Source of the DNA: Bacillota bacterium
Lineage (GTDB): Bacteria; Bacillota; Ch66; Ch109
NCBI GenBank assembly: GCA_050952625.1
Contig: JBMNLH010000001.1
Location: 1-64,000, forward strand
DNA: 64,000 nucleotides
Reading direction: 5' to 3'
In this document: in pieces, positions 5,045 through 32,705 of the stretch
Layout: each line of letters starts with the position of its first letter
Numbering within the stretch: position 1 is the first letter of the stretch
Position numbers and translations under genes: made by a program
The notes under the pieces: model-generated
What the model saw: only the letters and a program-made list of their open reading frames with translations
Told to the model about the DNA's origin: nothing
Databases searched by the model: none

Positions 5045-5186
5045 ATAAAATCAGGGGCAACAATAAAATCACTAAAAAGACTTAATATAATATAAAAATA
5101 GAATCCTAATAAAGCACGTTTAAAATACATACGAAAATACTTAGACACAGCATGCCCCTTTGTTTAATAACAAAGGAGGCATGAAA

Positions 5187-9984: not shown

Positions 9985-10271
9985 TGTTCTTGGATGAAAT
10001 TAAAAGATTGAACCTATCTTTCAACCTACAAAGAGAAAATGATCGGATTGCTTACAATATTATCAGGTCAAAAAGACAGAAAACAGCCTATATTATCAAA
10101 GCCATATTAGCCTATGAAGGTGTCACCCAAGAGGAGAGGGAACTAATAAGGATTAAAAGGGCACTTAGAGAAGTTATCAAAGAGATGAAACTTACAGCAG
10201 ATAAGCATTGCGATTTTACAGAAGAAAGCCAAATACCTGATGAGGTCTTCCAAATATTTGACAGTATCTAA
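9981..10271 (+). CDS. putative ParR centromere-binding adaptor
   Basis: 96 aa, overlaps parM stop; RHH-like RLNLSF...KTAYIIKAI; acidic C-terminal tail. Confidence 0.65.
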   Translation: MMFLDEIKRLNLSFNLQRENDRIAYNIIRSKRQKTAYIIKAILAYEGVTQEERELIRIKRALREVIKEMKLTADKHCDFTEESQIPDEVFQIFDSI

Positions 10272-10356
10272 AAACTGGCCATTGACAGGCCGGTTTTTTC
10301 TATTTTAGGAGCGGAAATAGCAATTAGGCCCATGATATAATGGAGCAAAAAAAGGG

Positions 10357-10488
10357 ATGAGAAAAATAGAAAAATGGTTTTTAGAAAAGGATAAAATACT
10401 AATATTCCCCAATGGACAAACTATACCAAGCCATTTAAAATATTGGAGAATTCTATGGTTTAATTTATACACTGGAGAAGACTTTTAG
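10357..10488 (+). CDS. 43 aa small protein (below ORF-track cutoff)
   Basis: MRKIEKWFLEKDKILIFPNGQTIPSHLKYWRILWFNLYTGEDF; TGaTATAAT at 10333-10341. Confidence 0.35.
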   Translation: MRKIEKWFLEKDKILIFPNGQTIPSHLKYWRILWFNLYTGEDF

Positions 10489-10608
10489 TCATTGAATTAA
10501 AAAAGGATAGTAGGATTATGGTATATCAGGCATGTAAGATAAAACAACTTTGCATATTGTAAAAATACCGACATCAAAAAGAACATATATGATTACAGGA
10601 GGTGATAT

Positions 10609-10788
10609 TAGTTCAAGATTTTAATAATAACGTTTATTATTTCAATCTGCCTTATAGTAAGTGCTTCCATACAACTATATAATATGTTAGGAAGCAAATC
10701 TTTAATAATTTTTACACTGGCAGCAGTAGCATTTATTGAATTGATTAGGGTAGCATTTTCAGGTAATAAATTTGATAACCAAGGTTAA
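10609..10788 (+). pseudogene. small two-TM membrane protein with TAG in place of the start codon
   Basis: AGGAGGTG RBS, then TAG, then FKILIITFIISICLIVSASIQLY...SLIIFTLAAVAFIELIRVAF...*. Confidence 0.45.
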
Positions 10789-10800
10789 GGGTAATTGGCG

Positions 10801-10975
10801 ATTGTTGACCAATAATAATCAATATTAGCCATTATTACTACTTGTTAGCCATTATTAAACTTTGATAAGTGCATTATAAACCTGTTATATAGTGGTTAAT
10901 AACAGTTAAGAACCATTGTTAGTAGTTATTACTGGGTATAAACTGTTAGGGGCTATTAGTGATAATTATTAACTT
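10801..10975. repeat. degenerate ~20-bp tandem repeats (candidate parC or iterons)
   Basis: attgttgaccaataataatc / aatattagccattattacta / cttgttagccattattaaac, then recurring gtta/atta at roughly 10-bp spacing. Confidence 0.45.
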
Positions 10976-11203
10976 TCAATATTGGCGGATATATTGAGAA
11001 ATGCTGCCTGTTTAAACGTAGAGTGAGTTGATTTTCCTAATTATTTAATTCGTGCCGAAAAAAATCGCTATAGAGGATGACTATGCTATAAATAAAATAA
11101 ATAAAAGGAACAAAATCAAAAGAAATAGAAAGAAATTGATATAAAATCCCAGTAGGCTAATATAGGGCTAAATCAGTATAAATCGGCTAAAATAGACTTT
11201 TTT

Positions 11204-11247
11204 AAAATAACCATTTTGTTATCAACTACAAAACGGTTATTTTTTTT
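11204..11247 (+). terminator. intrinsic terminator
   Basis: aaaataaccattttgt...acaaaacggttattttttt. Confidence 0.55.
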
Positions 11248-11638
11248 GCTCAATTTTCGATATGCTCCTAAAAAAATAGAAGATTGCACAATAAAAAATC
11301 CATCAAAATAAATAAAATAGATTTAATGAGGAAAAGGAAGAAAAAAATTAAATAAAAGGACAAAAAACATTATTTGATAATTACCATAATAACATTGTGA
11401 AACATATCTTGGATAAGTGTAAAATGCCTTTATAATAAGTTGAAATTAAAATGCTTTAATAAAGCAGAACAATTAAATAAAGATGTTAATAACAGGAATA
11501 ATGAGATTAAACTAGTTTAGTGAAGATGAATGGGCAAATAATTATAGTTCAATAATGAAAAATATGGCAAATCATGATATCATAAATTTATACTGTTGTC
11601 CACAGTTATTAATGTTTTTAATTGGGAGAGTGTGGGAA

Positions 11639-12241
11639 GTGAATATAAGCAAAAATAAACAAGTTTTTATAAAAACAATATTAGATTTTAGAGATGAAAT
11701 AATAAATGTTTTAAATAGGACTATTTATACAAGTGAGATTGAAAGGTTAAGTGAGGAATATCAAGGACGATTTAGTGCTGATCGATTCAAAGAATATCTT
11801 GTTAGTAAAACTGCTTTACATATTGTGATGAAATATATTTTTATAAGAATGATGACAGAAGGAGAGGGAGTAGTAAGTCCCAAACTAAATAATGAAGGCA
11901 TTAACAATTGGAATGAGATGACAAAAAATTATCGTGGAGACTATTTAATGCTCTTTAAAATAGCAACCGAAGATCTAAGAAGGGATAAAAACACAAATGC
12001 ATTTTTTGAACCTTGCTTATATGATGAATTCTTAGACAAACTTGAACGTAGTGTATTTAATAAATCTAAAGATAATTCTTTAGACAAACTTATGAATTTT
12101 GATTTCAAAACATTAGATCCTAATACGGCGGTTAGCGTATTTGATAATTTATATCCCAGTGAAGATAGAAAAACTCTACAAGGTTTTTTGGAAGAATCTA
12201 AGATTACAACTTATTTGATGGAATTACTTGGATTACTTTAG
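11639..12241 (+). CDS. non-catalytic paralog of the N-terminal domain of the downstream methyltransferase
   Basis: KTALHIVMKYIFIRMM and FDFKTLDPNTAVSVFDNLYPSEDRKTLQGF align with MTase RASYTILNKILFIRIC and FNFKYADGSILGDVYEKFMDRDTRKAIGQF; GTG start after GGGAG. Confidence 0.65.
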   Translation: MNISKNKQVFIKTILDFRDEIINVLNRTIYTSEIERLSEEYQGRFSADRFKEYLVSKTALHIVMKYIFIRMMTEGEGVVSPKLNNEGINNWNEMTKNYRGDYLMLFKIATEDLRRDKNTNAFFEPCLYDEFLDKLERSVFNKSKDNSLDKLMNFDFKTLDPNTAVSVFDNLYPSEDRKTLQGFLEESKITTYLMELLGLL

Positions 12242-12251
12242 GGGTGGAAAA

Positions 12252-15200
12252 ATGATTAGTGAGAACATATTAGATAAATCAAAACTTATTGCAGAACTTA
12301 AAGAAATACATAATGAACTTGTAGAGGTTTATAAAAGTATATTTGAATATAAATATAGCACTAATGAAGGTTTTAAGAATTTTATAGATAGACAGTATAG
12401 GGAAAACGGTATCAGTAAAAGAGAACAACAGGCTTGGAATGATAATTTTTGTCACAGGGCATCATATACCATTCTAAATAAAATATTGTTTATAAGGATT
12501 TGTGAAGACAAGGGTTTTATGCTAAATCCTGAGGATTATATTGCTGGAGTGCCCAAGGATCCCCATATTGGTGAAAAACTATCAAGAAAAGGCCTTCAGA
12601 AATGGGCTAATCTCGTAACTAATTATACCTTAGGGGAATTAGTTAAACTAGCCTTCCTAGATATGAAAAAGTCTTATGCAAATATCATACTTTATAAGGA
12701 TGATAAGTATGATATTTTAAATCCTACAATTGAAGAACTAAGCCTGAAGTATATAGAAGGTGATGAAGAAACTCAAAAATTGATTCTACAATTTGAGAAC
12801 ATCCTAGATAGTATCGTTGAGAAATTAGATACCAATAAGTTTAACTTCAAATATGCAGATGGAAGCATTCTTGGTGATGTTTATGAAAAATTTATGGATA
12901 GAGATACTCGAAAGGCTATTGGTCAATTTTACACACCTGAGTTTGTTATAGAGTTTATATTGAAAAATACTGTGGCTAAGGCTGATGTTGTAGAAAATCC
13001 TTTTGTTACCGTTGCAGATATATCATGCGGATCAGGACATTTTTTAATAATGGCCTATGATATTTTAAGGAACAAGTTTATAAAGAACCTGGAAATATTA
13101 AGGGACAAATACGCTAATGAGATTTACGTTATCAAAAGGCATGGAAGAGTTGAGAAGGTAAATGGAAAGGATTACTGGAAGGAAGAAAATATTCATTATC
13201 ATTTATTAAAACATTGTATCTACGGTGCTGATATAGATAGTTTTGCTGTTCAGTTGACTACAATAAATTTGCTTCTGAAAGATCTTGACAACTTTACTGA
13301 TGAACTAAATATTATTGAATGTGATAGTCTTATAAAGTGGGAAGAAGACTATGAGTGGCAGGATTTGAAGAAACAATTACAAGATATAAGTATGATGTAT
13401 ACAGTTAAATATAGAGATTTGCATGGGATAGAGAGAGTAGAGGATGTAGGTAGGCAAAAGGCAGAAGAAATAGTCAAATTATGCGAGTTTTGGAATAAGA
13501 AATATGATTATGTAGTGGGGAACCCGCCGTATGGTTCAAAAATAAACAGTACTGCATTAAAAGATTATTATATGAACAAATACAATGATGTTCATATGAG
13601 AACAATCGATGTATATAATTACTTTATATCAAGGGCTACAAAAAAGTTAAAAATTCAGTTAGGGTACATTATTCCAAGCACTTTATTAGCCCAGTTTGAA
13701 TACTCAAATTGTAGAAAATACCTAATCAATCATTATGGGATATCGCAGATAATACATTTGGGGGAAAATGTATTTGACGATAACGCATATCCAACGATGA
13801 TCCTAGTCCTAAACAGTAATAAGGAAAATCAAATAATAAAAATTTTAGATGTAAGTAACAGCATGAATAATGAGGAAAGAAAAGAAAAAATTAATAATGA
13901 TGAGTTATATAAAGAAATAAAACAAAAAATGTATAAGGTTATAGATAATACCAAATTTCTACTAGTTGATGAAAAATACATAGAATTAATGTTTAAAATA
14001 AGGTCTGAACATGCAACTCTTATAGAACTCTGTCAAAATGTTTCTGTAGGGATTGCAAGTGGAAACGATAGGGCCTTTGTCATTCGACAAAGCGAGGTTA
14101 GTAATGTAGATAAAATATTGTTAAAAAAATTATTAGTAGGAGGAGACATCAGTAGATATAACCTAGATTATTCAGGCAAGAATATTTTATATATAGACAG
14201 AGAGACTAATGTGACAAATTGTGATAGAACGATTAAACATCTGGAAAAATTCAAAGAACAATTAAGTTCCAGACGGGAAGCAAGAAAAGGAGTTATGAGA
14301 TGGTTTGAATTGCACTGGCCAAGAAATAAGGAGTTGTTTGAATCTAAAAAGGTTATATGTAGACAAACGGGTGACGAATTAATTGCCACTGTTGATGATA
14401 AAAAGCATTATACATTAAACAGCATAATAAATATTGTTTTAAAACCTGCCGTTAAATCTAAAGTTTCTGAGGAATATATATGTGCACTTTTAAATTCAAG
14501 GCTTATGAATTTTTATTATAAATTAATTGTGCAAGAAGATGATAAAGCATTTGCTGAGGTAAAACCTGTAGTTCTCAAAGAGTTACCGATACCAATAGTT
14601 GATAGTGATTGTATGACAAGAATAAATTCATTAGTTTCAGAATTAATTGATATAAACAACCAAAAACGCGAACTTTACCAACAATTTATCGTAGATAAAA
14701 ATGTAATAGACAATTATATCTCAAAAGTTGATAGAATAGAGACTAACAATTATAGGGCATACGAAATAGAAGAAGAATTAAATGCTATTGTGTATGAGTC
14801 GTTTGGTATTGATAAGGAATCGATTAAAATAATTGAAGATTATTATAAAAATAAGAATGATAAATCTAATAATACGGTATTAAATGTTGAAAGATTTATT
14901 AATGAGCATATAAATAACGGTTTAAATTTAAAGGAAATTGCGGAAAAATTTAATGTTGATTACGGAGAGGTTATTGAATTTAGACAAAAGTATAAGTATA
15001 AGGGAAAATCCCTAGCGTTAAGTCTTTACAATTATTCAAATCTCTACAGATCTATTGATGGATATTTTGTAAGGGTAACTAGGGATATTCTATACAGTAA
15101 CAAAAGATATATTGAAATCAGTAAATGTTTGGCTTTGTTAGAGCAAAGAATATTAAATTTTAATGAATATATAGATATTTTAAGAAACAGGACTGGTAAA

Positions 15201-15530
15201 CTTAAGAGAAAATTAGATATGCTTAAAGATTGTCTTAGTGGAGATGTTTACACTTGGAACGCATATAGAAAAGCAAAACTGACCGACAAAATAAATAAAA
15301 CTTTTATCAAATATTACGATAGCAATTACTATGGCCTTGCCGAATGGTCAGACGAAATTCATAAAAACTATTTCCTAGATGCTATAGAGGAATATACAGT
15401 AAATAATCCAAATGAAAAGAAAGCAAGAGATATACTTAAACTATTTAAGGATTTAGACATTGAAGATAAAAAGGATTATATTGAAGTTATTCAAGAAAAG
15501 ATAAAAACTGCTTTTGTTAGGGGGTGTTAA
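12252..15530 (+). CDS. N6-adenine DNA methyltransferase with target-recognition domain (PglX/PglXI-like)
   Basis: GQFYTP, DISCGSGHFL (motif I), GNPPY (motif IV), TaqI-C-like region (ICRQT, LLNSRL). Confidence 0.9.
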   Translation: MISENILDKSKLIAELKEIHNELVEVYKSIFEYKYSTNEGFKNFIDRQYRENGISKREQQAWNDNFCHRASYTILNKILFIRICEDKGFMLNPEDYIAGVPKDPHIGEKLSRKGLQKWANLVTNYTLGELVKLAFLDMKKSYANIILYKDDKYDILNPTIEELSLKYIEGDEETQKLILQFENILDSIVEKLDTNKFNFKYADGSILGDVYEKFMDRDTRKAIGQFYTPEFVIEFILKNTVAKADVVENPFVTVADISCGSGHFLIMAYDILRNKFIKNLEILRDKYANEIYVIKRHGRVEKVNGKDYWKEENIHYHLLKHCIYGADIDSFAVQLTTINLLLKDLDNFTDELNIIECDSLIKWEEDYEWQDLKKQLQDISMMYTVKYRDLHGIERVEDVGRQKAEEIVKLCEFWNKKYDYVVGNPPYGSKINSTALKDYYMNKYNDVHMRTIDVYNYFISRATKKLKIQLGYIIPSTLLAQFEYSNCRKYLINHYGISQIIHLGENVFDDNAYPTMILVLNSNKENQIIKILDVSNSMNNEERKEKINNDELYKEIKQKMYKVIDNTKFLLVDEKYIELMFKIRSEHATLIELCQNVSVGIASGNDRAFVIRQSEVSNVDKILLKKLLVGGDISRYNLDYSGKNILYIDRETNVTNCDRTIKHLEKFKEQLSSRREARKGVMRWFELHWPRNKELFESKKVICRQTGDELIATVDDKKHYTLNSIINIVLKPAVKSKVSEEYICALLNSRLMNFYYKLIVQEDDKAFAEVKPVVLKELPIPIVDSDCMTRINSLVSELIDINNQKRELYQQFIVDKNVIDNYISKVDRIETNNYRAYEIEEELNAIVYESFGIDKESIKIIEDYYKNKNDKSNNTVLNVERFINEHINNGLNLKEIAEKFNVDYGEVIEFRQKYKYKGKSLALSLYNYSNLYRSIDGYFVRVTRDILYSNKRYIEISKCLALLEQRILNFNEYIDILRNRTGKLKRKLDMLKDCLSGDVYTWNAYRKAKLTDKINKTFIKYYDSNYYGLAEWSDEIHKNYFLDAIEEYTVNNPNEKKARDILKLFKDLDIEDKKDYIEVIQEKIKTAFVRGC

Positions 15531-15531
15531 T

Positions 15532-16308
15532 TTGCTTATACAAACTATATCGGAGAAGATACCAATTGATGAAACAATAAAGGGATTAGAGTTTATTGAG
15601 CATGAAAGAAATTTAAGCAAATTAAAATCGTATATGGATGCTCTAATGCCTTTTGGTGAGCAAACAGTTGTAAAATATAGAAATAAATTTATACAAAGGT
15701 TTGTTGAAACTGAAGGGGAGCAAATTATTTATACCCCTCTTATACAGTTTATTAATAAAATGAGTAGTTATCAAACAAAAAAGGAAGTTATTTATTTCAT
15801 CGTCTGTTATACATCTAGTGCGGTAGGGGAAATAGCAAAAGGATTTCATGATGGTTTAATATCGGAAAAGATTGAAGCAGATAAATTGTATGAAATATTT
15901 AAAGCAGCGATGCCACATGTAAAAGAAAGTTCAATAAAGAAAACTTTCAACGTAGCAACTACTATACTTGAAGATTTCGGTATACTGCATCAGAAAAAGG
16001 ATGGAATTAAAAAGAAAAAATTCTTTGTACTAAACAATAATATAAGATCCTCAAATGAAGGGATTTTATTTAACCTATATTATGAATTTTTAAAATTAAG
16101 GGGCAATAAAATGCCCGAGGAAGAACTAATTTTAAACTGCGATACTTTTAAATATTTTATAATGAGTGACTTAATGAAAAAAAGGCATTTAAAATGGATG
16201 CTAGACTATGGATATATTGAGCATTATGTAATGGGAGGAAACTCTAAATACCAATTTTCTTATGATTCCTTGGAGCATCTTGTAAAGAAGGTGATTGCTA
16301 ATGATTGA
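15532..16308 (+). CDS. putative BrxA-like DNA-binding protein
   Basis: Size, winged-helix-like segments (ILEDFGIL, MLDYGYIE) and position in BREX operon. Confidence 0.5.
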   Translation: MLIQTISEKIPIDETIKGLEFIEHERNLSKLKSYMDALMPFGEQTVVKYRNKFIQRFVETEGEQIIYTPLIQFINKMSSYQTKKEVIYFIVCYTSSAVGEIAKGFHDGLISEKIEADKLYEIFKAAMPHVKESSIKKTFNVATTILEDFGILHQKKDGIKKKKFFVLNNNIRSSNEGILFNLYYEFLKLRGNKMPEEELILNCDTFKYFIMSDLMKKRHLKWMLDYGYIEHYVMGGNSKYQFSYDSLEHLVKKVIAND

Positions 16309-16750
16309 GCAGATTGATAATGCATTGGAAAGTATGGGGCAAAGAAGGATACTATTCATTATTGGAGATCACCTAAGTGGTAAAACAAGGTTAGTCAAGG
16401 ATTATCTATTTCATAGATTTGGACAAGATGCAGATTCCTATTATGTAGATGTGGGTTTATTTATTAAAAGTAAAATTACCGATGAGCATGTAGATTTATA
16501 CAGAATTTATCCTACAGAATTCGTTGGGGATGCTGATGTTTTTTTTAAGCAGTTAATTAAAGAAAAATATCAAGATAAAGATCTAATTGTCCTTGATCAT
16601 ATGGAATTCTTGCTTTCAGAAAAATATGTTGGTTGGATAAAAATATTAGATAAGATTACCGTGAAGAATAAAACTGCTATTATTGTCGTGCCAAGTGAAT
16701 ATGAAAAGAGTCTACCTCTTTTTGCGTATAAATATTTAAAGGTTGATTAG
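16301..16750 (+). CDS. brxF: BrxF-like small P-loop protein
   Basis: IIGDHLSGKT Walker A and LIVLDHMEFL Walker B-like motif in ~150 aa, directly before the large ATPase. Confidence 0.6.
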   Translation: MIEQIDNALESMGQRRILFIIGDHLSGKTRLVKDYLFHRFGQDADSYYVDVGLFIKSKITDEHVDLYRIYPTEFVGDADVFFKQLIKEKYQDKDLIVLDHMEFLLSEKYVGWIKILDKITVKNKTAIIVVPSEYEKSLPLFAYKYLKVD

Positions 16751-16763
16751 GGGGGATAGGAAG

Positions 16764-19700
16764 ATGAAGATTAAAGAAATTATTGAGGTACCTCAAATTG
16801 ACAAGATTGTCAGACTGACGGACAACCTATCTGATAAAGCAGACAAGGATAAACTTAGCGACCTACTAAAAGGTTATGTAATAACTGATAGTGTAGAAAA
16901 AAACTTAAGTAATTTCTTCTATAAAATAACTAACTTTAAGGATAAAGGTCATGGTTTCCTTATATCAGGCCTCCCTGGATGTGGTAAATCACACTTTTTG
17001 TCCGTTTTAGGACTACTTATTAAACATAATGACGCCTTTAACATCATGGAAGGGAAAAGTGAGTCTATAGACAAAGCGAAAGTATTCTTCAAAGATAAAA
17101 AAATTTTTGTTGTGCCTATTATTGCAGAAGAAGGTGGCCCTGAGGTTTCACTGCAGGACATGTTTTTTGATGCAGCGGAAGAGATAACAGGTTTTCCTTT
17201 TACTGATGAAAGTTATTATATTAAGCAATTTGAAGAGGCTATCGTTGCTAACAGTAATTATGAAAAAAAAGTTGATCAATTTGTGAGAACAAGTTCAAAC
17301 AATAAATTTTTGACTTGGGCTGATTTTAAGTCAAAAATGAAAAACAACAGAACAATAACAACATTGATACAAGCATTCATTGACAAACATGAGATTGTTT
17401 TTTTCAATCCTAACAGAGGTAGGAAAGATAGGTTGGACTATCTTTATAAATGGTTAGATGAGGAAAACTATGACGGAATACTAGTACTAATTGACGAACT
17501 TTCAGAGTACTTAAATGACAGAGGGACCAAAGCGAGAGATGATGCATTGTTTTTAAAAGTATTCTTAGAAAATGCCGAACAAGAAAGGAATGGGAGTGTT
17601 ATTCCAGCATGGATTGTCGGGGCATTTCTATCTTCTTTAAACGATGTGAAAGTCCCTGATGTTTATGACTTGATGAAGGATAGATTTCCAACGGAAAATC
17701 AATTTACTTTAAAAGTAGATGATATAGAGGAGATTATTGACCAAAGGCTTATAATGAAGAAAAAACCGGAAAAAATTGAAGAAGCATTTGTGTTGCTGAA
17801 AAATAAATACAATGCTTTTGATAAAGTAGAAAAAAAGACGTTTCAGCAAATATATCCTCTTCACCCTGAAACATTAAATATCTTATCTAAATCTGTTCGC
17901 TTCTTATCAAGGCAAAGATCTATAGTTGATTTTGTTCTAAGTGAAGTAAAAGGAAATTTAGATGAGGGTGGAACTACTAAAGGAATAATGGATGATGATT
18001 TCCTTAAATTAGTAACCCCAGATAGAATATTAAACCACTTTCAACAAAGAATCAGGGAGTTAAGTGATAAAAGGGAATACTTTGAAACCATATATTCATA
18101 TTATATGGGTCCTGAAGGTTTAGGGAATGGAAAAATAAAAGATTTGTTTAAAGATGATGAATCGGACAGAGAAACTGCGTGTAAATTAATTGATGTTATG
18201 ACACTGTTAAAGATACTAGATTTGGAGAAGGAATATACCGTTAGAGATTTAACGTATATGATTCAATATCCAAAGATGCAAGGGGATTTTGCTGAAATAA
18301 AGGTTAACAGAATTTTATTAGATATGTATGAAAAAGGTAGATTCATTGAAATAGACCCAGGAAATAGCAATGATAATGTAGGTAATAATAAATACTATAT
18401 CAACAAAGATATAAGCCTATCTACCAAAATAACCCAGGACTTAAAGAAAAAACTTGGGTTGATTGAGGGAGAGAGTGTTGTATCTATTGTTTCAGAAATA
18501 ACAAAAACTTTAACTCAAGAACCCTTAAATATAAGCAATTATTATAATGAGCCTACCCCATATCGAATAAATTGGGGTAACACCATAAGAGAAGGTGTTG
18601 TTTTATTTAATCGACTTGAGAAGGTAGCATCAAAAGAGCATTTATCTAAGGCTCTAGATGATCTGAAAAATTCAGAAAATGATTTTTATCTTTATATTGG
18701 GACAGTTTTTAAACATGACGAACAAAAAAAGTTTATTGATAAGTCTTTAAGAGATTTAGGCAATGGAGAAAAGCAACAATCGTTATTGTCTATGTGGTCT
18801 AACTTTGAGAATGAGGCCTCAAAAGAAATAGAAAAGAGGTTATCTAAGGCTATTGTTTACTGGCTACCATCTGATGAACTAGAAAGAGAAGAAGGAAAAG
18901 ATAAATTACAAAGGCTAAGGGAATATTACGCTTATTTGGAACTTTGCAAAGAATATCAAAGAAGTTATGAGGATACCCATTCAAAAGAAAGTAAACAATT
19001 ACTAAATATAGTAGAAGAAAAGATATTAAACCTAGAGGATGAAATCTTCCAAATACTAAAGAATCTTTATTTGACTGGCAACTTTTTTAATATTGATGGA
19101 AGAATAGATGTGGATATTTCTTCCTATGGGAATGATTCTTTAAATAATATTATAAAAACTGTTATGGATATCGTGCTTGGACAGGTTTATAGCAGCAATA
19201 GGTTTATTTGCCCAGACGAAAATTTAGGGTTAACAGATAATACAGTCAATAAGTTCATAAACAATTTTATTCTAGGTGGGAAAACCGATCCAACTGGGAT
19301 AGAAGCAAGCATAATTAAGAATGTTGTAAAAAAATTTGGAGATACCAGTATTAAAAATGACTTTTTCAAATTTAGTGTGGATTCTAAGAATAACAATCTT
19401 GTAAAACTGATAGTAAAAAACGTTGAAGACAAAGAAGAGATAATTTACAAGAACCTGTATAACATGGTAAGAAAATCACTATTTGGACCTGATAGAAATA
19501 CCATTGAGATACTTTTTGCAATGATGATAAAAAAAGGTTTTTTGATACCTATAAAAAATGATGTGCCAATTAATATTTCAAATATTAAGGCGCCTCTCAA
19601 TACCTCCATTTCAAAGTTTAAAATGGGTGAATTTGTGGATGAAAAATATAGTGAGGGTTTAATAAGAGTAACAAAACTTTTCTTTGATAAAAAGTTTGAA

Positions 19701-20906
19701 AAACAAGACTTATCGTTTCAGGAAGAATTGTGGGAGGATTTAGTTGAACTTAAGAGTCAAGTTATTTCCATAATAAATAATGCCAGTTATGAGATATCAG
19801 AATTCAGAAAAATTATTGGAATTGAACAGGATAGGTTTGAGAATACATACGGTATTCTTAATACTTTGAAGGAAATATTTGAAGGTGTCGTAGAAACTAA
19901 TGGGTCTAAAGATGGCTTAGAATATTTTATAGAAACTAATAGGGAAAGCATTATAGGAGGCTATTTAGAAAAAGTATATTTAGATTTTGGTATTATCTGC
20001 GACTGGATTAATTCAGATGTTCCTATGGATTTACAGAAAGTAAATAATCAGGCTAAAGGATACAGGAGTTTTATCCCTGAAAAGGAAGAATATTATGAGT
20101 TAATAAAGCAACATAACGAAATTATTAATCTATTAGATAACGGTGATGAATTTATATTTGGGTCAGTTGCTAATTCCTTAAATGAAAAGTTTAATGAATT
20201 CAAAAACAGTTACATTTCGTTATATGTGGAAGAACATAGAAAAGAAAACAATAAAAGTGAATTTGATGAACTGGAAAATGTTTTAAATGATGAAAATTTT
20301 ATATTTCTATCAAAGTTAAGTATTATTGAAAGAATTAATATGGATTATGATTATATCAACATTAAAAATGACATAGAAAGACAGTTATCAGACCAGTGTA
20401 AGGATTCCCCGATTAAATATATAGACAATGGAGAAAGCAGTTGCGTCTGTCACTTTAAATTAGGAGAAAAGAAATATGTAGAGAGCGGTGATTATTTTAA
20501 TAATGCTGTAACCAATGCCATATTGGGTTATATTGACGGGTTAAATACAGAAGCCAATAAAGAAAAGGTTTTTAAGTATATAGGCGATCTTAAACAAATA
20601 GGGGATAAAAAAGAAATTATATCTTTAGTAGAAAGGTTGTATGATATTCCCCTTGATAATGATAGATTAAATCAATATAAGGAATATCTAACTATAAATC
20701 CTGATGTAATACCTTTTTTAGATAAAGCCCTTAAAGTAAATATTAATTTTATACACAGAGATATTAACAAGTTGATAGAGGTTTTTAAAGATAAGGCTTA
20801 TTCCAAAGAGGAAATCATACAAAAATTTATACAAGTGGTTGATGGGCAAGATGAGATTAAGCCTAATTTCTATATTAAGTTCACAGATTTAAGAAGTGAT
20901 AACTAG
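16764..20906 (+). CDS. brxC: BREX large P-loop ATPase BrxC/PglY (DUF6079-like)
   Basis: GLPGCGKSHFL, LIDELSEYL, YPLHP, RQRS; long coiled-coil C-terminus with CxCxF motif. Confidence 0.8.
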   Translation: MKIKEIIEVPQIDKIVRLTDNLSDKADKDKLSDLLKGYVITDSVEKNLSNFFYKITNFKDKGHGFLISGLPGCGKSHFLSVLGLLIKHNDAFNIMEGKSESIDKAKVFFKDKKIFVVPIIAEEGGPEVSLQDMFFDAAEEITGFPFTDESYYIKQFEEAIVANSNYEKKVDQFVRTSSNNKFLTWADFKSKMKNNRTITTLIQAFIDKHEIVFFNPNRGRKDRLDYLYKWLDEENYDGILVLIDELSEYLNDRGTKARDDALFLKVFLENAEQERNGSVIPAWIVGAFLSSLNDVKVPDVYDLMKDRFPTENQFTLKVDDIEEIIDQRLIMKKKPEKIEEAFVLLKNKYNAFDKVEKKTFQQIYPLHPETLNILSKSVRFLSRQRSIVDFVLSEVKGNLDEGGTTKGIMDDDFLKLVTPDRILNHFQQRIRELSDKREYFETIYSYYMGPEGLGNGKIKDLFKDDESDRETACKLIDVMTLLKILDLEKEYTVRDLTYMIQYPKMQGDFAEIKVNRILLDMYEKGRFIEIDPGNSNDNVGNNKYYINKDISLSTKITQDLKKKLGLIEGESVVSIVSEITKTLTQEPLNISNYYNEPTPYRINWGNTIREGVVLFNRLEKVASKEHLSKALDDLKNSENDFYLYIGTVFKHDEQKKFIDKSLRDLGNGEKQQSLLSMWSNFENEASKEIEKRLSKAIVYWLPSDELEREEGKDKLQRLREYYAYLELCKEYQRSYEDTHSKESKQLLNIVEEKILNLEDEIFQILKNLYLTGNFFNIDGRIDVDISSYGNDSLNNIIKTVMDIVLGQVYSSNRFICPDENLGLTDNTVNKFINNFILGGKTDPTGIEASIIKNVVKKFGDTSIKNDFFKFSVDSKNNNLVKLIVKNVEDKEEIIYKNLYNMVRKSLFGPDRNTIEILFAMMIKKGFLIPIKNDVPINISNIKAPLNTSISKFKMGEFVDEKYSEGLIRVTKLFFDKKFEKQDLSFQEELWEDLVELKSQVISIINNASYEISEFRKIIGIEQDRFENTYGILNTLKEIFEGVVETNGSKDGLEYFIETNRESIIGGYLEKVYLDFGIICDWINSDVPMDLQKVNNQAKGYRSFIPEKEEYYELIKQHNEIINLLDNGDEFIFGSVANSLNEKFNEFKNSYISLYVEEHRKENNKSEFDELENVLNDENFIFLSKLSIIERINMDYDYINIKNDIERQLSDQCKDSPIKYIDNGESSCVCHFKLGEKKYVESGDYFNNAVTNAILGYIDGLNTEANKEKVFKYIGDLKQIGDKKEIISLVERLYDIPLDNDRLNQYKEYLTINPDVIPFLDKALKVNINFIHRDINKLIEVFKDKAYSKEEIIQKFIQVVDGQDEIKPNFYIKFTDLRSDN

Positions 20907-20915
20907 GTGATAATA

Positions 20916-23393
20916 ATGAGTGAAATGTATTCGTATTATCTACAAAAACATCTAGAACAAATGACTAATCTAGAGAGCCATTTATTAGTGCTACAAGACA
21001 AAAATAACTTATTAAATCATGCTAAGGATATAGAATTGTATCTATATCCTTACAGGATTATTTTTGTCGAGCAAAACGTTATTTTCAGAGCCAAATATGA
21101 AGATATAAAGGAGCATACTGAAAGTAATTACATAATTGTTTTAAAGGATGAGGGGTTACAAAATAAACTGCTAGATTTTATCAGGCGTGCCGAGGGTGGA
21201 AAAATAAAAGAAATAACGACTCAATCTCTGCTCGAATGCGTTGAACAAGATCTAAGATGGAACGAAGAGATAAACCAATATGACAGTGCTGACATAAAAA
21301 AGGCATTTAGTGAATTAGTATATTATCGTAAATTAATCAGAAAAAGAAACATTGATAAACATGAGACAAATAAAATAGTCTTGTCTTCACTCCTTGAAGT
21401 AGATGCTATTCACCTAAAGGATGAGGTAGATTGCTATCTATATTATAGGGATATAAACGAACTTTATGGTGGGCTTAAGACATTAAAGTTTAATACAGAT
21501 ATAAAAGTGCTGGTAAATAAGATATTTTCAGAATATGGATCTCTTTTAGCCCTTGTTGCTGAGACAGATAGGTTTATAGAATTTGAACGCCTGCTTTGGG
21601 TTTGCTGTGGGTTAAATAGTCTCAAAAGTCTTTCTCATAAAAACTTAAAAATTATATTTCAAGATGAGTATGAAAAACTAGATATATTTACTCCTCACTT
21701 AGATAAATTAGTTGATTTTGCTAACCTTATAGGTAAGAGAGATAAAAAATACTATGTTCAAAAGAAGGACTGGGCGGAGAAGTTAATATTAAATTCAAAA
21801 ATAGATGTACTTTTAAAGAGAGATAGTTATAAGGAAATCCTTAGGGAGGGGACAGGTTCTTTAATCAATGTTCTTGAGAGTATAAAATTGGTACTAAGGG
21901 ATTACAACTTAGAAGGAATAAAAAAAGTATTTAAGTATAATTTGGATAATCTTTATGAATTAAATGTTTTAATCAAGGAAAGTGTTCACTATAAGACGAA
22001 GAATGTTAAGGAATTACTAGATCTATATGATTTAATAATCAACCTCTTCAGGGAAATAGAATATGCAGAAAGTCAAATACAATTTCGAAATAATATAAAT
22101 AGCCACAATCATTGGGAAAACTTTTATCTAAAACATCTATTCGATTTACAGTATAGGCTATCTGAAATAAAGAATCTAGACAAACATGGTTTAATTGAGG
22201 CTAACAGATATGCTTTGATTGATAAACGGGTAAGTAATATTTTAAATATTTATAGAAAACAATTTGCAGAATTTCTAAAAGACAATTATGACTCTTGGCA
22301 GACTATGCCTTATGGAATATCAAGACCAATACTAAATAGTGATATTTCAGATATACTGAATTTTGAATCACAGAAGACATATCTAATTGTATTTGATGGC
22401 ATGCGATATGATGCGTGGGAGTATGTGGTAAAGAATTATTTTAAGGAGTCTCTATCAAAAAGAAATACTAAATACAAGAGTTCCTTTGCACTTTTACCGA
22501 CCATTACTTCTATTTCGAGAGAAGCGATATATTCTCGGATTTTTAAGGATTATAAAAATGATATTGCCTTTCTTACTAAATCGGAGAGTATGGCGAAGGC
22601 AGGGGAACTAAAAGATATAATCTTGCAAAATAAGAAAATAAATATATTAGTGTTTAATATGTTTGATAAAGATGGACATAACGCAACTGAAGATTTCTTT
22701 ATATTTTATAATAAACAAAAGAAGGTATTTGAAAATAGTATAACTGAATTATTAAGTGTAATTCCGGACGACTCAAACATTGTGATTACATCCGACCATG
22801 GATTAATGCGTATTGATGAATATATAAATATTAAAAATATAGCAGGGATAGAAAGCGTTAGACCTAGATATCTGATGGCCGATTATGAGATTAGTATAGA
22901 GGGATGTATTAATACTAAAGATAACTATTTGTTAGTATATGATAATAGAGGTTATTTTATTGGTGGCGGTGAAAGGGAATTATATAGTCATGGTGGTGCC
23001 AGCATAGAAGAAGTAGTTGTACCATTCATTGTTGCGGAGTCTAAAGAAATAGGAAAACAATCTGAAGTAGTAAGATTTAAGAGTTCACTAGTTGATAAAA
23101 CGGAAGTATTTGAATTAGATAAGGATGTGGTGTTGAAATTAAAATTTAAGCCGACTGAGAAAGAAAAAATCATATTAACATCATTGTATAACTTTAAAAA
23201 TCAAAGTATAAGTAATAAAGATATTGAGAAGATCTTAAAAAACAAAACGGGTTCTGCTGGCTTGGTAAACGGCATAATTAGAAGGCTTGCTAAGAAACTC
23301 CAAAGCGATGGACTAGATATCATAGAAGAAACAGCCGTTGGAGATTTGATTTTATATAAATTAAAGCATGATAGACTGGAGGAGATATATTGA
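20916..23393 (+). CDS. pglZ: PglZ alkaline-phosphatase-fold protein with C-terminal winged helix
   Basis: VFDGMRYD, LPTITSISR, DKDGH, ITSDHG, HGGASIEEVVVP. Confidence 0.9.
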   Translation: MSEMYSYYLQKHLEQMTNLESHLLVLQDKNNLLNHAKDIELYLYPYRIIFVEQNVIFRAKYEDIKEHTESNYIIVLKDEGLQNKLLDFIRRAEGGKIKEITTQSLLECVEQDLRWNEEINQYDSADIKKAFSELVYYRKLIRKRNIDKHETNKIVLSSLLEVDAIHLKDEVDCYLYYRDINELYGGLKTLKFNTDIKVLVNKIFSEYGSLLALVAETDRFIEFERLLWVCCGLNSLKSLSHKNLKIIFQDEYEKLDIFTPHLDKLVDFANLIGKRDKKYYVQKKDWAEKLILNSKIDVLLKRDSYKEILREGTGSLINVLESIKLVLRDYNLEGIKKVFKYNLDNLYELNVLIKESVHYKTKNVKELLDLYDLIINLFREIEYAESQIQFRNNINSHNHWENFYLKHLFDLQYRLSEIKNLDKHGLIEANRYALIDKRVSNILNIYRKQFAEFLKDNYDSWQTMPYGISRPILNSDISDILNFESQKTYLIVFDGMRYDAWEYVVKNYFKESLSKRNTKYKSSFALLPTITSISREAIYSRIFKDYKNDIAFLTKSESMAKAGELKDIILQNKKINILVFNMFDKDGHNATEDFFIFYNKQKKVFENSITELLSVIPDDSNIVITSDHGLMRIDEYINIKNIAGIESVRPRYLMADYEISIEGCINTKDNYLLVYDNRGYFIGGGERELYSHGGASIEEVVVPFIVAESKEIGKQSEVVRFKSSLVDKTEVFELDKDVVLKLKFKPTEKEKIILTSLYNFKNQSISNKDIEKILKNKTGSAGLVNGIIRRLAKKLQSDGLDIIEETAVGDLILYKLKHDRLEEIY

Positions 23394-24670
23394 AAAAAGA
23401 AATTTTAAAAGATATTATTGATTCTCTTAGGAATGGTACGGTCCCCGCAGAAGGAACAGGAAATATTGCAGTAGGTATAGATGATGAAATGGCAGAAATT
23501 GCAGAGCAACTTAATAATGTAAGAAATGGGAAGTCATCTTTTAAATTTGTAATTGGTGACTATGGTTCCGGTAAGACATTTTTTAGTACAGCGGTTAGAG
23601 AGATGGCCTACGATAAAGGATTTGCCGTTTCTTCAGTCGTTGTATCACAAGAAACCCCTCTTCATAAATTTGAAGAACTTTATCGGAAGATTATGGATGG
23701 AATGAGGATACCAGATAACAATAAAATTCCTGCGTTTACACTTATTTTAGAAGAATGGCTTTTAAATATAGAAGATAAGATTATTGAAATCGAAGGAATA
23801 GATCCGGAAGGGAACAAGGAACAGTTTGAAAAGGAAATGAATAAAAGAATTAATGAAGAATTGCAGGTAGTTGGTTCAATTGCTGCTTCCTTTGCTAATG
23901 CTATTAGAGGATTTTATAAGGCAAAATATGACGGTAACCACATTTTATATCAGGGAGCAATTGCGTGGCTTAAGGGGGAAAGCATTAGACCGGAGATTAG
24001 GAAAGGCTTAAATGTAGCAGGCTCTGTGACCAGGGAAAACTCTTTTGAATTTTTCAAGGCATTACTTCATATGATTAAATCTGCTGGTTATCATGGTTTG
24101 ATTATTATTATTGATGAAGTTGAGACAGTGCAAAAACTAAGAAGTGATTATCGCCATGCGGCATATGAAAATCTTAGATTTTTCATTGATGAAGCAGATA
24201 AGAACAATTTTCCTAATTGCTTTTTCTTATACACAGGAACTACGGATTTAATGGAAAGTGAAAAAGGATTTAAATCATTGGAGCCACTATATCAAAGGGT
24301 GAAGGTAGAGAGAGAAAAGGAATTTAAAAACCTGAGACAACCTGTTATGTTTTTAGATGGATTTAATAAGAATAAATTAAATGAGGTGGCAAAGAAGGTA
24401 AGAGGGATTCATGGGGATGTATACTCTTGGATGCCAAATGAAAAGGTGAATGATTTATTTGTTGAAAAATTAATTGAAGATATGACAACAGGATTTGGGG
24501 GCGAAATAACTATAGGGCCTAGAGGTTTCTTAAGAACCTTAGTTGATATTCTTGATAAGAGTCAAATGCATGATGAGTATCAACCTGAGAAGCATTTTAA
24601 ATTTGATGATAAAATCAGGTCCATTGCAGAGAGTATAGAAAATACAACTGCACACATTGTTAACTTTTAG
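23390..24670 (+). CDS. brxD: BrxD (DUF2791-type) ATP-binding protein
   Basis: SLRNGTVP, GDYGSGKTFF, IIDEVE, PRGFLR. Confidence 0.85.
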   Translation: MKKEILKDIIDSLRNGTVPAEGTGNIAVGIDDEMAEIAEQLNNVRNGKSSFKFVIGDYGSGKTFFSTAVREMAYDKGFAVSSVVVSQETPLHKFEELYRKIMDGMRIPDNNKIPAFTLILEEWLLNIEDKIIEIEGIDPEGNKEQFEKEMNKRINEELQVVGSIAASFANAIRGFYKAKYDGNHILYQGAIAWLKGESIRPEIRKGLNVAGSVTRENSFEFFKALLHMIKSAGYHGLIIIIDEVETVQKLRSDYRHAAYENLRFFIDEADKNNFPNCFFLYTGTTDLMESEKGFKSLEPLYQRVKVEREKEFKNLRQPVMFLDGFNKNKLNEVAKKVRGIHGDVYSWMPNEKVNDLFVEKLIEDMTTGFGGEITIGPRGFLRTLVDILDKSQMHDEYQPEKHFKFDDKIRSIAESIENTTAHIVNF

Positions 24671-24678
24671 GTGATAAT

Positions 24679-26817
24679 ATGTCTAATTTTCATATGTTAT
24701 GTAATCCACTAAAAGAGAAGATTATTAATAGGCTAGGTTGGAGGGAATTAAAACCTGTCCAAGAAATGACGATACCTGAGATAATTAAGGGAAACAATGC
24801 GATAGTTCTTGCCCCAACAGCAGGGGGCAAGACTGAGGCAGCATTTTTCCCTATATTGCATATGATACACACAGAAAACATTCCAGGTACATCAGTAATC
24901 TATGTATCGCCTATAAAAGCACTTCTCAACAACCAAGAAGAAAGACTTAGGGTGCTTTCGTCTTTTATATATGGAGAAGTTTTTAAATGGCATGGAGATG
25001 TAGGATCATATGAAAAAGTCAAATCATTTAAGAATCCACCTAATGTTCTTATGATAACCCCAGAATCTTTAGAGGTTATTCTTATGAATAAGAAGATCGA
25101 TAAAGAAGACTTTTTTAGAAATATTAGGTTTGTTGTAATAGATGAAATACACTCTTTTGCTGGCGGTGAAAGGGGAGTTCATTTAACTGCACTAATAGAA
25201 AGGATTCAATATTTTTCTCAATATGATATTCAGAGGATTGGCCTTTCTGCCACCGTGGGCAATCCTAGAGTTATTGGTAAATGGATGAATGGAAGTAGCA
25301 AAAGAGAACTAATAATAATAGATCCTCCAAGGGAAGACAATAAAAAATTAATTGAAATTAAACTTCTCCACAAACACGAAGATTTTGGAGAAGAAGTATG
25401 TAGACGAATCTACGGTAAAAAAGCACTGTTTTTCACAAACAGCAGGAGTGCTGTAGAAGGATTAAAGAAATCTATCGAAGATTGGGGTATAGAGACTTTC
25501 GTACATCACTCATCAATAGATAAAAGATTCAGGGAAATAGCAGAAGAAAAATTTAAAATTGGCACAAATACCTGTATTATCGCAACAAGCACCCTTGAAC
25601 TTGGTATTGATATAGGGGATCTCGACATTGTATTACAACTTGATTCTCCTAATACAGTTTCTTCATTTTTGCAACGTATGGGAAGAACCGGAAGACGTAA
25701 AGACACTGTTGCCCACTATGTATTTTTCCCCACAAAGGCAAGCAAATTTATATTAGCGATAGCAATATTAAATTTAGCAATTAGAAAATGGGTGGAGGGT
25801 GTTTATGTAAGCAAGATATCTTACGATTTATTATTTCATCAGATTATAACTATGGCTCTTGCAGAATTTGGTATAGACAAAAATAAGATATTTGAGATAT
25901 TAAGTAATGTGTATTCTTTTTCGGGCATTGAGAAAAGAGAATATGAGGAACTTTTAGAATACATGATGAATGAAAAGTACATACAAATTGATAGAAATAA
26001 AGTTTACTTAGATACTAAAACGGAGGAATCATTCGGAAGGCAAAACTTCATGACATTATATTCTGCTTTTGAAACTAACAAAGAATTCACAGTAAAATTT
26101 CGCAACAGAACCATAGGAACTTTAGAAAGATGGTTTGTTAATGCATTAGGGGACAATTTCCAATTTATTTTAGCAGGGAAGTATTGGCAAACTGATAAGA
26201 TTGATTATGATAAATCAATAATACACGTAATTGAAGCAAAAACAGCCTTACCCCCACGGTGGATAGGCGGAGAGGGTTTTTATTCTTACCAATTATCACA
26301 GGAAATATTAAAGGTAGTGAGTACAGATGAGGAGTATACCTTTCTTAATGATTATGAAAAGAAGATACTAAATGATATAAGATATGAGGAAAAGTCTTTT
26401 GGACTTAAAGTGGGTAAAATGATTATAGAGGAAATTAAAGATGGATATCATTTTTATACTTATGCCGGTAACAAAGTAAATTATACTTTGGCAACTGTTT
26501 TAAGTTTTATAAACAATATGATCGATATAAAGAGCATTACTTGGTCAGGGTTTAAGTTGGTTTCAGCGGATAAAGATTTTAAACCAACGAATAAAGAAAT
26601 TTTAGATTTAATTAATAATATAAAAAGTAATAATAATTATTTTCTAGATATTTATAGTAAATTAACTGAGCGTGTGCCAGATATATCATTATCAAAGTAT
26701 CAAAAGTATTTACCTGATAGATTAAGAAAAAAGATGATTGCTGATTATGTGTATGATATTAATACAACTGCAGAATTTATTAATAATACATCCATTGAGA
26801 TACTAAAAGTATATTAA
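24679..26817 (+). CDS. brxHI: Lhr-like DEAD/DEAH helicase BrxHI
   Basis: APTAGGKTEA, TPESLE, DEIH, LSATVGN, TSTLELGID, QRMGRTGR; follows brxD. Confidence 0.85.
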   Translation: MSNFHMLCNPLKEKIINRLGWRELKPVQEMTIPEIIKGNNAIVLAPTAGGKTEAAFFPILHMIHTENIPGTSVIYVSPIKALLNNQEERLRVLSSFIYGEVFKWHGDVGSYEKVKSFKNPPNVLMITPESLEVILMNKKIDKEDFFRNIRFVVIDEIHSFAGGERGVHLTALIERIQYFSQYDIQRIGLSATVGNPRVIGKWMNGSSKRELIIIDPPREDNKKLIEIKLLHKHEDFGEEVCRRIYGKKALFFTNSRSAVEGLKKSIEDWGIETFVHHSSIDKRFREIAEEKFKIGTNTCIIATSTLELGIDIGDLDIVLQLDSPNTVSSFLQRMGRTGRRKDTVAHYVFFPTKASKFILAIAILNLAIRKWVEGVYVSKISYDLLFHQIITMALAEFGIDKNKIFEILSNVYSFSGIEKREYEELLEYMMNEKYIQIDRNKVYLDTKTEESFGRQNFMTLYSAFETNKEFTVKFRNRTIGTLERWFVNALGDNFQFILAGKYWQTDKIDYDKSIIHVIEAKTALPPRWIGGEGFYSYQLSQEILKVVSTDEEYTFLNDYEKKILNDIRYEEKSFGLKVGKMIIEEIKDGYHFYTYAGNKVNYTLATVLSFINNMIDIKSITWSGFKLVSADKDFKPTNKEILDLINNIKSNNNYFLDIYSKLTERVPDISLSKYQKYLPDRLRKKMIADYVYDINTTAEFINNTSIEILKVY

Positions 26818-26838
26818 TATAAGTGGAGGAGGGTTAAT

Positions 26839-27042
26839 ATGTCGACAATAAAAAGTTGGCAAGAATTAGAGAACTATCTTAAAAAGAACCCGGATGTTGT
26901 ACTTAAACAAAATATAGGTAAAGTAATAGAATATGAATGTCCTGAATGTAAATCGACACAAAAAATAGAAATCATTTCCGCAAATAAGGGAATGTGTGAA
27001 AATTGTAGCAGAGAAATTGAGATTACATTGGTAATAGAATAA
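26839..27042 (+). CDS. small zinc-ribbon protein
   Basis: CPEC...CENC; GGAGG RBS; terminator hairpin at ~27088-27125. Confidence 0.7.
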   Translation: MSTIKSWQELENYLKKNPDVVLKQNIGKVIEYECPECKSTQKIEIISANKGMCENCSREIEITLVIE

Positions 27043-29420: not shown

Positions 29421-29448
29421 TTTCAACATAATATAAATTATGCTGCCG
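29421..29448 (-). other. dif-like (Xer-type) recombination site
   Basis: Minus strand CGGCAGCATAA-TTTATA-TTATGTTGAAA, 11-6-11 like E. coli dif GGTGCGCATAA-TGTATA-TTATGTTAAAT. Confidence 0.5.
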
Positions 29449-29711
29449 TTGTCCGCTTTTACCCGAGGATCAAGAGATGATTAATACAAAATATCAACAT
29501 AGTTTAAGAGGAAATTGCAGTATTATTTGAAGACATAATTTATGGAGTGTTATTTAGTAATAAAACATCTGTTAATGATAGAAGTTTCAATGTAGTTAAC
29601 ACAGTTTTATCGCTATTGATTAGCAGCAGTTGTTAGCCATAGAATTGCTAAAACAGATTACACCATAATATGGTATTATAAAGAAAATATCATTTATAAG
29701 GGGGAGAAAGG

Positions 29712-30125
29712 ATGTCGATTCCAAATTTGCAAATTGTGCTCAAAACAATCAGAGAAAATTATAATTGCTCGCTAACAACTATTAAAGGGAAACGAATTAT
29801 GTTTGAAGGAGTGAGCAATAACAAGAAATTAGTTCTTTGTACTCCATCTTCAAAGTTACATCCTCAAGGTAAAGGCTGGTTTGATCTCACAACTAAACAA
29901 GTCGAACTTCTAGATGATTCAGACATTTCGATACTTGCAGTTCGGTTAGAAGGGGGAAAAGTATATTATATTAACTTTAAAGATCTTAGAAGGTTAATGG
30001 AACCAGAGATGATACTTGAGAACCCAAGAGAAGGTAAACACTGGAAGTTTTATGTTTGGCCAAGTTATTTAAAAGTTCAAGGTAATGAAAAAGAATTTCA
30101 TATTCAGCCTGAAGTTGTTTACTAA
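29712..30125 (+). CDS. hypothetical protein (possible nuclease-fold)
   Basis: 137 aa, GGGGAG RBS. Confidence 0.6.
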   Translation: MSIPNLQIVLKTIRENYNCSLTTIKGKRIMFEGVSNNKKLVLCTPSSKLHPQGKGWFDLTTKQVELLDDSDISILAVRLEGGKVYYINFKDLRRLMEPEMILENPREGKHWKFYVWPSYLKVQGNEKEFHIQPEVVY

Positions 30126-30376
30126 GAAGTAGATACCCTTCCATTTGATAAAATTTATAAGAGTCAGGTGATAATCCTGACTTTTGTATTTGAATAATTT
30201 TCTATTCGAGTGTAACACAATTAAAAAAGAGTTAATCTCATAAAATGGCTGAAAGCCTTGGAAAATAAGCATTCCTTTAATAATGCCATAATTTATGTCT
30301 TATTAGTGTAACATATTGGGCTGCCTATATAACAGTAAGCGTGATATAATGAGACTAGAAAAAATTTCTGGAGGGA

Positions 30377-32553: not shown

Positions 32554-32705
32554 TTCTCAACGTAATTTCATATTATACACAATTTATCAAAAATAATAAT
32601 TAATAATGAAGATTATATATGAATGATATATAATACTATTAAGATAATAATTGGAACATAATGGTAGCATTGTGTTTTAGTATAAAGAACTTGGGGGGAG
32701 AGAAT

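Follow-up and report, generated by a model that had tools for sequence, protein, structure and literature searches.

To which bacteriophage exclusion (BREX) type, if any, does an operon belong that joins a BrxC-like ATPase, a PglZ protein and an adenine methyltransferase (MTase) to a BrxD-BrxHI pair? The question is raised by a locus at 11639-27042 of the window, the whole 64,000-nucleotide stretch analysed here (positions 1 to 64,000, forward strand, of contig JBMNLH010000001.1 in assembly GCA_050952625.1, from a Bacillota bacterium). A first-pass annotation had read the locus as a type-3-like core carrying a BrxD-BrxHI module and had proposed an unclassified BREX subtype. The proposal of an unclassified subtype has held: BrxC and PglZ fall on separate branches, no named type fits, and the type 6 alternative was tested and failed. 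The operon probably encodes an intact anti-phage system of the BREX family, from a Bacillota lineage that none of types 1-6 includes, and here it rides on a mobile island. Treating it as a BREX lineage of its own describes it better than treating it as a type 3 core that borrowed a module.

A conserved eight-gene operon

The operon consists of nine co-oriented open reading frames (ORFs) on the + strand with zero internal stops. The intergenic gaps are, in operon order, 10, 1, -8, 13, 9, -4, 8 and 21 nt, and Shine-Dalgarno-like sequences precede most starts, so that the tight coupling recorded in the first-pass annotation stands. The products run from a small first protein (gene 1) through an MTase, BrxA-like and BrxF-like proteins, BrxC, PglZ, BrxD and BrxHI to a zinc-ribbon protein. 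Walker motifs are intact in BrxC, BrxD, BrxHI and the BrxF-like protein. Upstream lies a ~1.4-kb AT-rich region (10271-11638) without long ORFs and with a promoter signal not above chance; scans for promoters and terminators did no better than chance (95 versus 101 and 7 versus 5.8).

The arrangement recurs elsewhere. One genome scan with a single BrxC sequence returned five loci (L001-L005). All eight genes up to the helicase are present in the same order in Tissierella pigra (L002) and Clostridium amylolyticum (L005), which, together with the partial locus of C. algifaecis (L003; same order from the MTase end through the helicase), answers the suggested check for synteny in other Bacillota. 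L004 keeps the order from the MTase end to BrxC; it and L001, a Peptococcales metagenome-assembled genome 99.97% identical to the window, are short contigs agreeing over their extent. In L002-L005 the genes other than the MTase are 55-84% identical.

The slot after the helicase differs between loci. In the window it holds the ninth ORF (26839-27042, + strand), a 67-aa CxxC..CxxC zinc-ribbon protein that is also present in T. pigra (61%) and absent from the C. algifaecis and C. amylolyticum loci. Because it occurs in one of the three related loci reaching past the helicase, it is not core, and the core is eight genes; the earlier listing of the zinc ribbon as an operon member is right for the ORF seen here but not for core membership. 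The same slot in C. algifaecis (L003 12093-12494, directly after the helicase) carries an apparently truncated 134-aa BrxL/Lon-like C-terminal piece with 27% identity. The C. amylolyticum locus has an apparently interrupted small DNA methyltransferase gene after the helicase (L005 ~20330-21095) and a phospholipase D (PLD)-helicase (DUF3427) gene upstream of the operon (L005 1265-4459).

Protein searches extend the distribution. Among 47 BrxC matches, 35 are 44-100% identical, the remainder dropping to ~20-32%; the close ones include Bacillus cereus, Metabacillus, Virgibacillus, Solibacillus, Bhargavaea and Proteinivorax. For PglZ, 32 of 33 matches are 45-99% identical. A BrxD group at 62-100% identity again names B. 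cereus, Solibacillus and Proteinivorax among the 120 of 141 matches listed. Pairing clusters by equal longest-contig size, with four close BrxD rows left out, linked BrxC to BrxD in 8/35 clusters, PglZ to BrxD in 9/32 and BrxC to PglZ in 8/35, Solibacillus isronensis and Proteinivorax hydrogeniformans being among the paired clusters. A sister BrxD group (P0124-P0156) stands at 45-57% identity; one member is named Fusobacteriaceae and two carry ~130 extra residues. No clade members were found on PLSDB plasmids.

Several BREX hallmarks were sought in the window by hidden Markov model (HMM) scans of 26 proteins with Pfam, NCBIfam and PADLOC. The window and L001-L005 were also searched by tblastn with 16 reference proteins (PglW, BrxL, BrxHII, BrxE, BrxXI, BrxB and a Shango-associated ATPase), which found no PglW, BrxHII, BrxE, BrxXI or BrxB in any of them. 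No BrxL was found in the window, and the only BrxL-like tblastn match in the related loci was the C. algifaecis piece; the other matches were cross-matches to BrxD. The earlier statement that PglW, BrxL and an SNF2 helicase are missing from the window is thus upheld.

Judged by gene content, with a BrxC ATPase and PglZ present and the MTase motifs intact, the operon is a member of the BREX superfamily.

BrxC and PglZ form their own branches

BrxC (16764-20906, + strand) is a 1380-aa AAA+ ATPase related to DUF6079. PADLOC recognizes it as BrxC (E=2e-10), and DUF6079 is precomputed for an identical protein, which agrees with the label first given to it; a direct Pfam scan returned no match. A profile of the clade, that is, of this BrxC and its close relatives, matches the solved BrxC 9zn5 (E=1e-8). 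The same profile scores unclassified BrxC relatives at 96-639 bits, type 3 BrxC at 40-50 and type 2 BrxC at 17-18, among its weakest matches.

PglZ (20916-23393, + strand), a predicted phosphodiesterase/nuclease of 825 aa, owes its label to Pfam PF08665, as first assigned. It scores 82 bits on the PglZ_3 model (cut-off 250) and 30 bits on the type 2 PglZ model (cut-off 200). Residues D494, T531, D584, D586, H588, D627, H628 and H692 are invariant in 20/20 aligned rows, and T531 and H692 correspond by motif to the Thr and His on which type 1 PglZ depends for its nuclease activity. A structure model (mean predicted local distance difference test score (pLDDT) 75.8) matches PorX and the BREX PglZ structures 9zn5 and 9nv3, and its C-terminal end, a hairpin, three helices and a hairpin, was read as a winged helix. 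This tail extends 134 aa beyond the last HGG, against 18-32 in type 3; by sequence it is clade-specific, and its profile has no match to type 2 PglZ tails. A BREX survey (PMC12839542) assigns a C-terminal winged helix to type 2 PglZ and none to type 3. When a PglZ profile was run against 1.84 billion representatives, three full-length 50%-clusters scored 761-1361 bits and the next full-length protein 140. NCBIfam scans of 64 of the 150 listed PglZ matches gave 8 true type 3 proteins and 56 below every BREX cut-off. A large pool of PglZ and BrxC proteins likewise lies below all curated BREX cut-offs (P0206-P0329, P0036-P0047); some of its PglZ proteins reach 1493-1780 aa (P0310, P0341, P0348) and some of its BrxC proteins 1500-1780 aa.

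Trees were built by a quick method with references for types 1, 2, 3, 5 and 6 from annotated plasmids (2-7 per type, no type 4). The PglZ core tree holds 49 of 57 rows, eight rows without the cutting motif, among them five of type 3 and one of type 2, having been dropped. The BrxC clade has a support of 100 and lies outside the branches of types 1/5/6, 2 and 3. The PglZ clade, also at 100, lies outside the same branches and joins 25 unclassified PglZ proteins at 89. The phylogeny check suggested with the first-pass annotation thus returned a separate branch for both proteins.

Most named types can be set aside. Type 6, represented by two references, was rejected as a sister of the clade in approximately unbiased (AU) tests for BrxC (p=9e-6) and PglZ (p=0.004), and gene 1 is not BrxE. 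It is the type that the first-pass annotation had named as the simpler answer, with a 151-aa protein as BrxB and the first gene as BrxE; tblastn gave no BrxB match, and gene 1 scored at background against two BrxE proteins. Type 6, whose composition was taken from annotated loci L008 and L009 and from PMC12839542, does resemble the operon in its small first gene, BrxA-like protein, small STAND protein, BrxC, MTase, PglZ, BrxD and BrxHI, and it supplies the best helicase matches. In the operon, however, the small STAND protein keeps its Walker A motif and the MTase precedes the BrxA-like, BrxF-like and BrxC genes. Types 1 and 5 are ruled out by the single BrxC, the lack of BrxL in the window and the lack of BrxHII; a type 5-style duplicated BrxC was seen in locus L013. 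Type 4 is ruled out by the presence of an MTase and by operon HMM scans without a phosphoadenosine phosphosulfate (PAPS) reductase match.

The BREX-related (BR) systems, including the type 3 BR system, and MANTIS share the logic of an AAA+ ATPase, an MTase and a helicase, and MtsB of MANTIS, an accessory protein needed for methylation, is a loose functional analogy for gene 1. According to PMC12839542, however, those systems use DUF499-type ATPases, BrxXI-like MTases and Swi2/Snf2 helicases. The operon encodes a DUF6079-related BrxC, a full-length, multi-domain PglZ and an Lhr-like helicase, which rules out the type 3 BR system with its DUF499 ATPase, stand-alone PglZ domain and BrxHII-like helicase.

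The small components between MTase and BrxC

Two small genes precede brxC. The first (15532-16308, + strand) encodes a 258-aa protein that is BrxA-like by a weak assignment: it had no HMM match in three libraries, an ESM Atlas lead points to a DUF1819/BrxA cluster (score 0.91, the family on 14% of members), and its profile matches a BrxA-family protein of Halorarius (E=0.004). It is 64-78% identical in L002-L005. The second (16301-16750, + strand) encodes a 149-aa P-loop/STAND protein with weak matches to BrxF (PADLOC E=5e-5; NCBIfam 17 bits, cut-off 50) and no match to the BrxB references in tblastn. It retains a Walker A motif (GDHLxGKT) and a Walker B-like motif, Walker A being kept in 5/5 homologs. 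Two of the three BrxF references from type 3 keep Walker A as well, even though descriptions of BrxF call it a STAND protein without activity. Position and size of both genes fit BrxA-like and BrxB/F-like components.

The methyltransferase and its N-domain paralog

The 1092-aa N6-adenine MTase (12252-15530, + strand) has Eco57I/N6/TaqI_C HMM domains, with motif I (DISCGSG) at 256, motif IV (NPPY) at 424 and a C-terminal TaqI_C-type target recognition domain (TRD); both motifs are present in 3/3 full-length MTases. Motif I comes before motif IV, and there is no four-cysteine insert. Its best match in the Protein Data Bank (PDB) is CamA (E=7e-52). The MTase profile reaches 129 bits on a stand-alone IIG-like enzyme versus at most 44 on PglX, and comparison with three BrxXI references gave no match. 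From these features the enzyme is best classed as a gamma-class, Eco57I/IIG-like MTase, distantly PglX-like and not BrxXI.

In 50-column blocks, the TRD is 58-87% identical to that of C. amylolyticum and 19-34% identical to that of T. pigra, whereas the N-terminal and catalytic parts are conserved, with 56-92% identity to both over most of the first 390 residues. Such divergence would be expected of specificity exchange, and an exchangeable TRD could be where new methylation specificities arise.

Gene 1 (11639-12241, + strand) encodes 200 aa that align end to end with MTase residues 1-240. The alignment scores 4.1-8.0 z units over shuffles in 9/9 pairs, and hhalign gives P=47% and E=2e-4; this signal is modest, because a PglZ control reached 64-67 by local alignment. 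Identity with BrxE was ruled out: scores against two BrxE proteins were at background, neither NCBIfam nor PADLOC gave a BrxE match, and there was no meaningful HMM match in three libraries. In the ESM Atlas the protein falls in a cluster of its own kind, with 61 members, mostly Bacillota. On these comparisons, gene 1 is most simply classified as a stand-alone paralog of the MTase N-terminal helical domain.

When gene 1 was co-folded with the MTase N-domain, the pair scored 0.80 and the best of three controls 0.00; the mark applied is reached by 116 of 157 solved pairs and 2 of 215 mismatched pairs. At least 92% of the contacts are common to the runs, and the partner pLDDT is at least 89. Eighteen of the 21 interface residues of gene 1 share alignment columns with interface residues of the MTase, an overlap reached by one of 158 register shifts, the true register. 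Gene 1 is therefore predicted to dock the MTase N-domain pseudo-symmetrically. An AlphaFold2 model of gene 1 from three sequences was poor (pLDDT 49.7), and a wide fold search with it gave generic helical matches only (best Z 6.2). Neither gene 1 nor the MTase N-domain nor the profile of the BrxF-like protein had a significant match when the PDB was searched by sequence, and by sequence no complex like that of gene 1 and the N-domain was found there. PMC12839542 describes the helical N-terminal domain of BREX MTases as a possible interaction surface.

The BrxD-BrxHI pair

The 426-aa ATPase (23390-24670, + strand) and the 712-aa Lhr-like superfamily 2 helicase (24679-26817, + strand) keep the names BrxD and BrxHI that they were first given. 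BrxD scores 379 bits on NCBIfam NF033438 (cut-off 350) and, in PADLOC, 382 bits on BrxD versus 196 on SngB. The helicase, which matches Pfam WH_Lhr, scores 665 bits on PADLOC BrxHI versus 477 on Shango SngC, and is 37% and 32% identical to plasmid helicases of type 6 and type 2, respectively. In its tree BrxD clusters neither with the two references of type 2 nor with the two of type 6, and its neighbour is an unassigned group.

Shango contains a related ATPase and Lhr-like helicase in tandem (SngB-SngC), and a similar pair does exist outside BREX, as the SngB/SngC matches and a second pair in L009 illustrate. The locus might then be two adjoining independent systems, a BREX-like modification core and a Shango-like ATPase-helicase pair. 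This is highly improbable: there is a 4-nt overlap between pglZ and brxD, all three loci that extend to the pair have it after pglZ, the BREX models win by ~190 bits each, the operon showed no SngA-like gene, and BrxD and BrxC share equal longest-contig sizes across Clostridia and Bacilli.

Weighing a type 2 or type 3 origin

Several points count against the reading of the operon as an intact BREX system of a lineage of its own. The union of the clade with type 3 is not rejected by the AU test for either BrxC (p=0.29) or PglZ (p=0.17), nor is the union with type 2 for BrxC (p=0.06). The reference sets are small, with type 4 missing, and 8/57 PglZ rows were dropped. The loci known as DNA number only five, all from Clostridia/Tissierellia, so that synteny in Bacilli comes indirectly, from equal longest-contig sizes. 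The BrxA and BrxF labels of the 258-aa and 149-aa proteins are weak. Finally, because the co-folded chains are paralogs, the passing score of gene 1 could reflect a homodimer surface of the MTase or of gene 1.

The operon could, on the first of these counts, be an offshoot of type 3 in which BrxXI was swapped for an IIG-like MTase and BrxHII for BrxD-BrxHI, the hybrid of the first-pass annotation. Its type-3-like core survives in so far as the best named matches of PglZ, BrxC and the small P-loop protein are indeed to type 3, but all these scores are far under the type 3 cut-offs and the type 3 branch does not include the clade. A plasmid locus of Halorarius halobius (NZ_CP101162.1, L010, unclassified) lends the idea some colour: MTase, BrxA, small protein, BrxC and PglZ follow one another there as in the operon, the MTase is of the BrxXI type, and no BrxC with known context comes closer than the one encoded there (113 bits). 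That locus (L010 14147-25383) differs in its MTase, in a metallophosphoesterase that follows PglZ instead of BrxD-BrxHI, and in having no gene 1. The unclassified BrxC relatives outscore type 3 by a wide range, the PglZ tail forms an extra C-terminal domain, the MTase lacks the inserted zinc-finger TRD of BrxXI, no BrxHII is present, and the type 3 order is F-C-X-H-Z-A. We regard a type 3 offshoot as unlikely.

A divergent type 2 system without PglW, in which separate genes rather than PglW itself carry the BrxA- and BrxB-like functions, is about as improbable. The order BrxC-PglZ-BrxD-BrxHI is that of type 2 loci L006, L007 and L017, a gamma-class MTase lies upstream, and the winged-helix end of PglZ is the one described for type 2; about 20% of type 2 taxa are without PglW, and the weak best PglX matches of the single MTase are to type 2. 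Yet the core proteins are far below the type 2 cut-offs (88 bits against 400 for the MTase, with PglZ as given above) and on separate branches. Type 2 BrxC is among the weakest clade-profile matches, the PglZ tail profile has no match among type 2 tails, BrxD branches away from both type 2 references, and type 2 forms one (starred) branch that excludes the clade in both trees. The separate BrxA-like and BrxF-like genes and the MTase N-domain paralog set the operon further apart. A BREX lineage of its own remains the better description.

Literature searches found no published description of this gene arrangement, and the supplement of the survey PMC12839542 may already list such loci. PMC7988955 reports a methylome for Thermanaerosceptrum fracticalcis DRI-13, which carries brxD, brxHI and a pglX-like gene; as its MTase lies ~20 gene numbers from brxD, there is no clear sign that the system is the same.

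Genomic context

The GC content of the window is 30.5% up to ~41 kb and 43% beyond. A TniQ/TnsD gene of a Tn7-like element lies at 452-1729 (+ strand; Pfam TnsD E=1e-58, TniQ E=6e-21). At the GC step, a short-repeat cluster with a 217-nt duplication (40623-41511) is the probable site of one or more Tn7-like ends; it holds 10 of the 13 motif matches in the window, with 2.4 expected in all. No tRNA was found in the window. The operon thus sits in a low-GC, probably Tn7-like island, perhaps with stacked ends. It may be Tn7-like cargo; tnsABC and the second end would then lie beyond the window or have escaped recognition.

The island also holds a cyclic oligonucleotide-based antiphage signalling system (CBASS) cyclase with a four-transmembrane (4TM) effector (32661-34622), and an 891-aa protein (5160-7835) without Pfam or NCBIfam match and with weak helicase-like PADLOC matches, possibly an island replication protein. 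A 1-kb block with a 137-aa gene (29423-30438) is 98.8% identical to T. pigra L002 23138-24152, whereas the two operons are only ~76% identical; a ParM-like gene lies upstream of the block in both. The block points to recent exchange between related islands.

Proposed function and implications

By analogy with type 1 BREX and MANTIS (preprint 10.64898/2026.09.23.753747), we infer that the operon methylates its host's DNA and restricts phage. In type 1, PglX is bound by a core of BrxB, BrxC and PglZ (PMC13326643), and PglZ acts as a metal-dependent nicking nuclease (PMC12205998). A core complex of BrxC, the BrxF-like protein and PglZ would accordingly be expected here; it would recruit or load the MTase, which would mark a short host sequence with N6-methyladenine (m6A) at a site set by its exchangeable TRD. 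Gene 1 would pair with the MTase N-domain through the homologous surface, as a catalytically empty second subunit occupying the dimer face. Unmethylated sites on incoming DNA may switch the same complex to a restriction state in which PglZ nicks DNA. BrxD would load or activate the BrxHI helicase, and BrxHI would fill the motor role held by BrxL in type 1 and BrxHII in type 3.

New here are gene 1, as a putative stand-alone paralog of the MTase N-domain, and the operon itself, as a BREX variant whose function we infer. Wider, and decidedly tentative, is the proposal that the clade is only the part so far in view of another major BREX lineage, one that includes the large pool of BrxC and PglZ proteins below the curated cut-offs. 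The BrxA-BrxF-BrxC-PglZ core of this lineage would exchange both its MTase class and its effector/motor module, and gene 1 would be a dedicated subunit on the MTase dimer face, gating the switch between methylation and restriction. If true, this would give a direct handle on the function of the conserved N-terminal domain of BREX MTases. With the putative N-domain copy on a separate, deletable gene with a predicted interface, the role of that domain becomes testable. The system also offers the BrxD-BrxHI motor for study in a setting free of PglW and BrxE. Counts of such loci in Bacillota are likely too low, because their BrxC, PglZ, MTase, BrxA-like and BrxF-like proteins fall below the NCBIfam BREX cut-offs or are unmatched.

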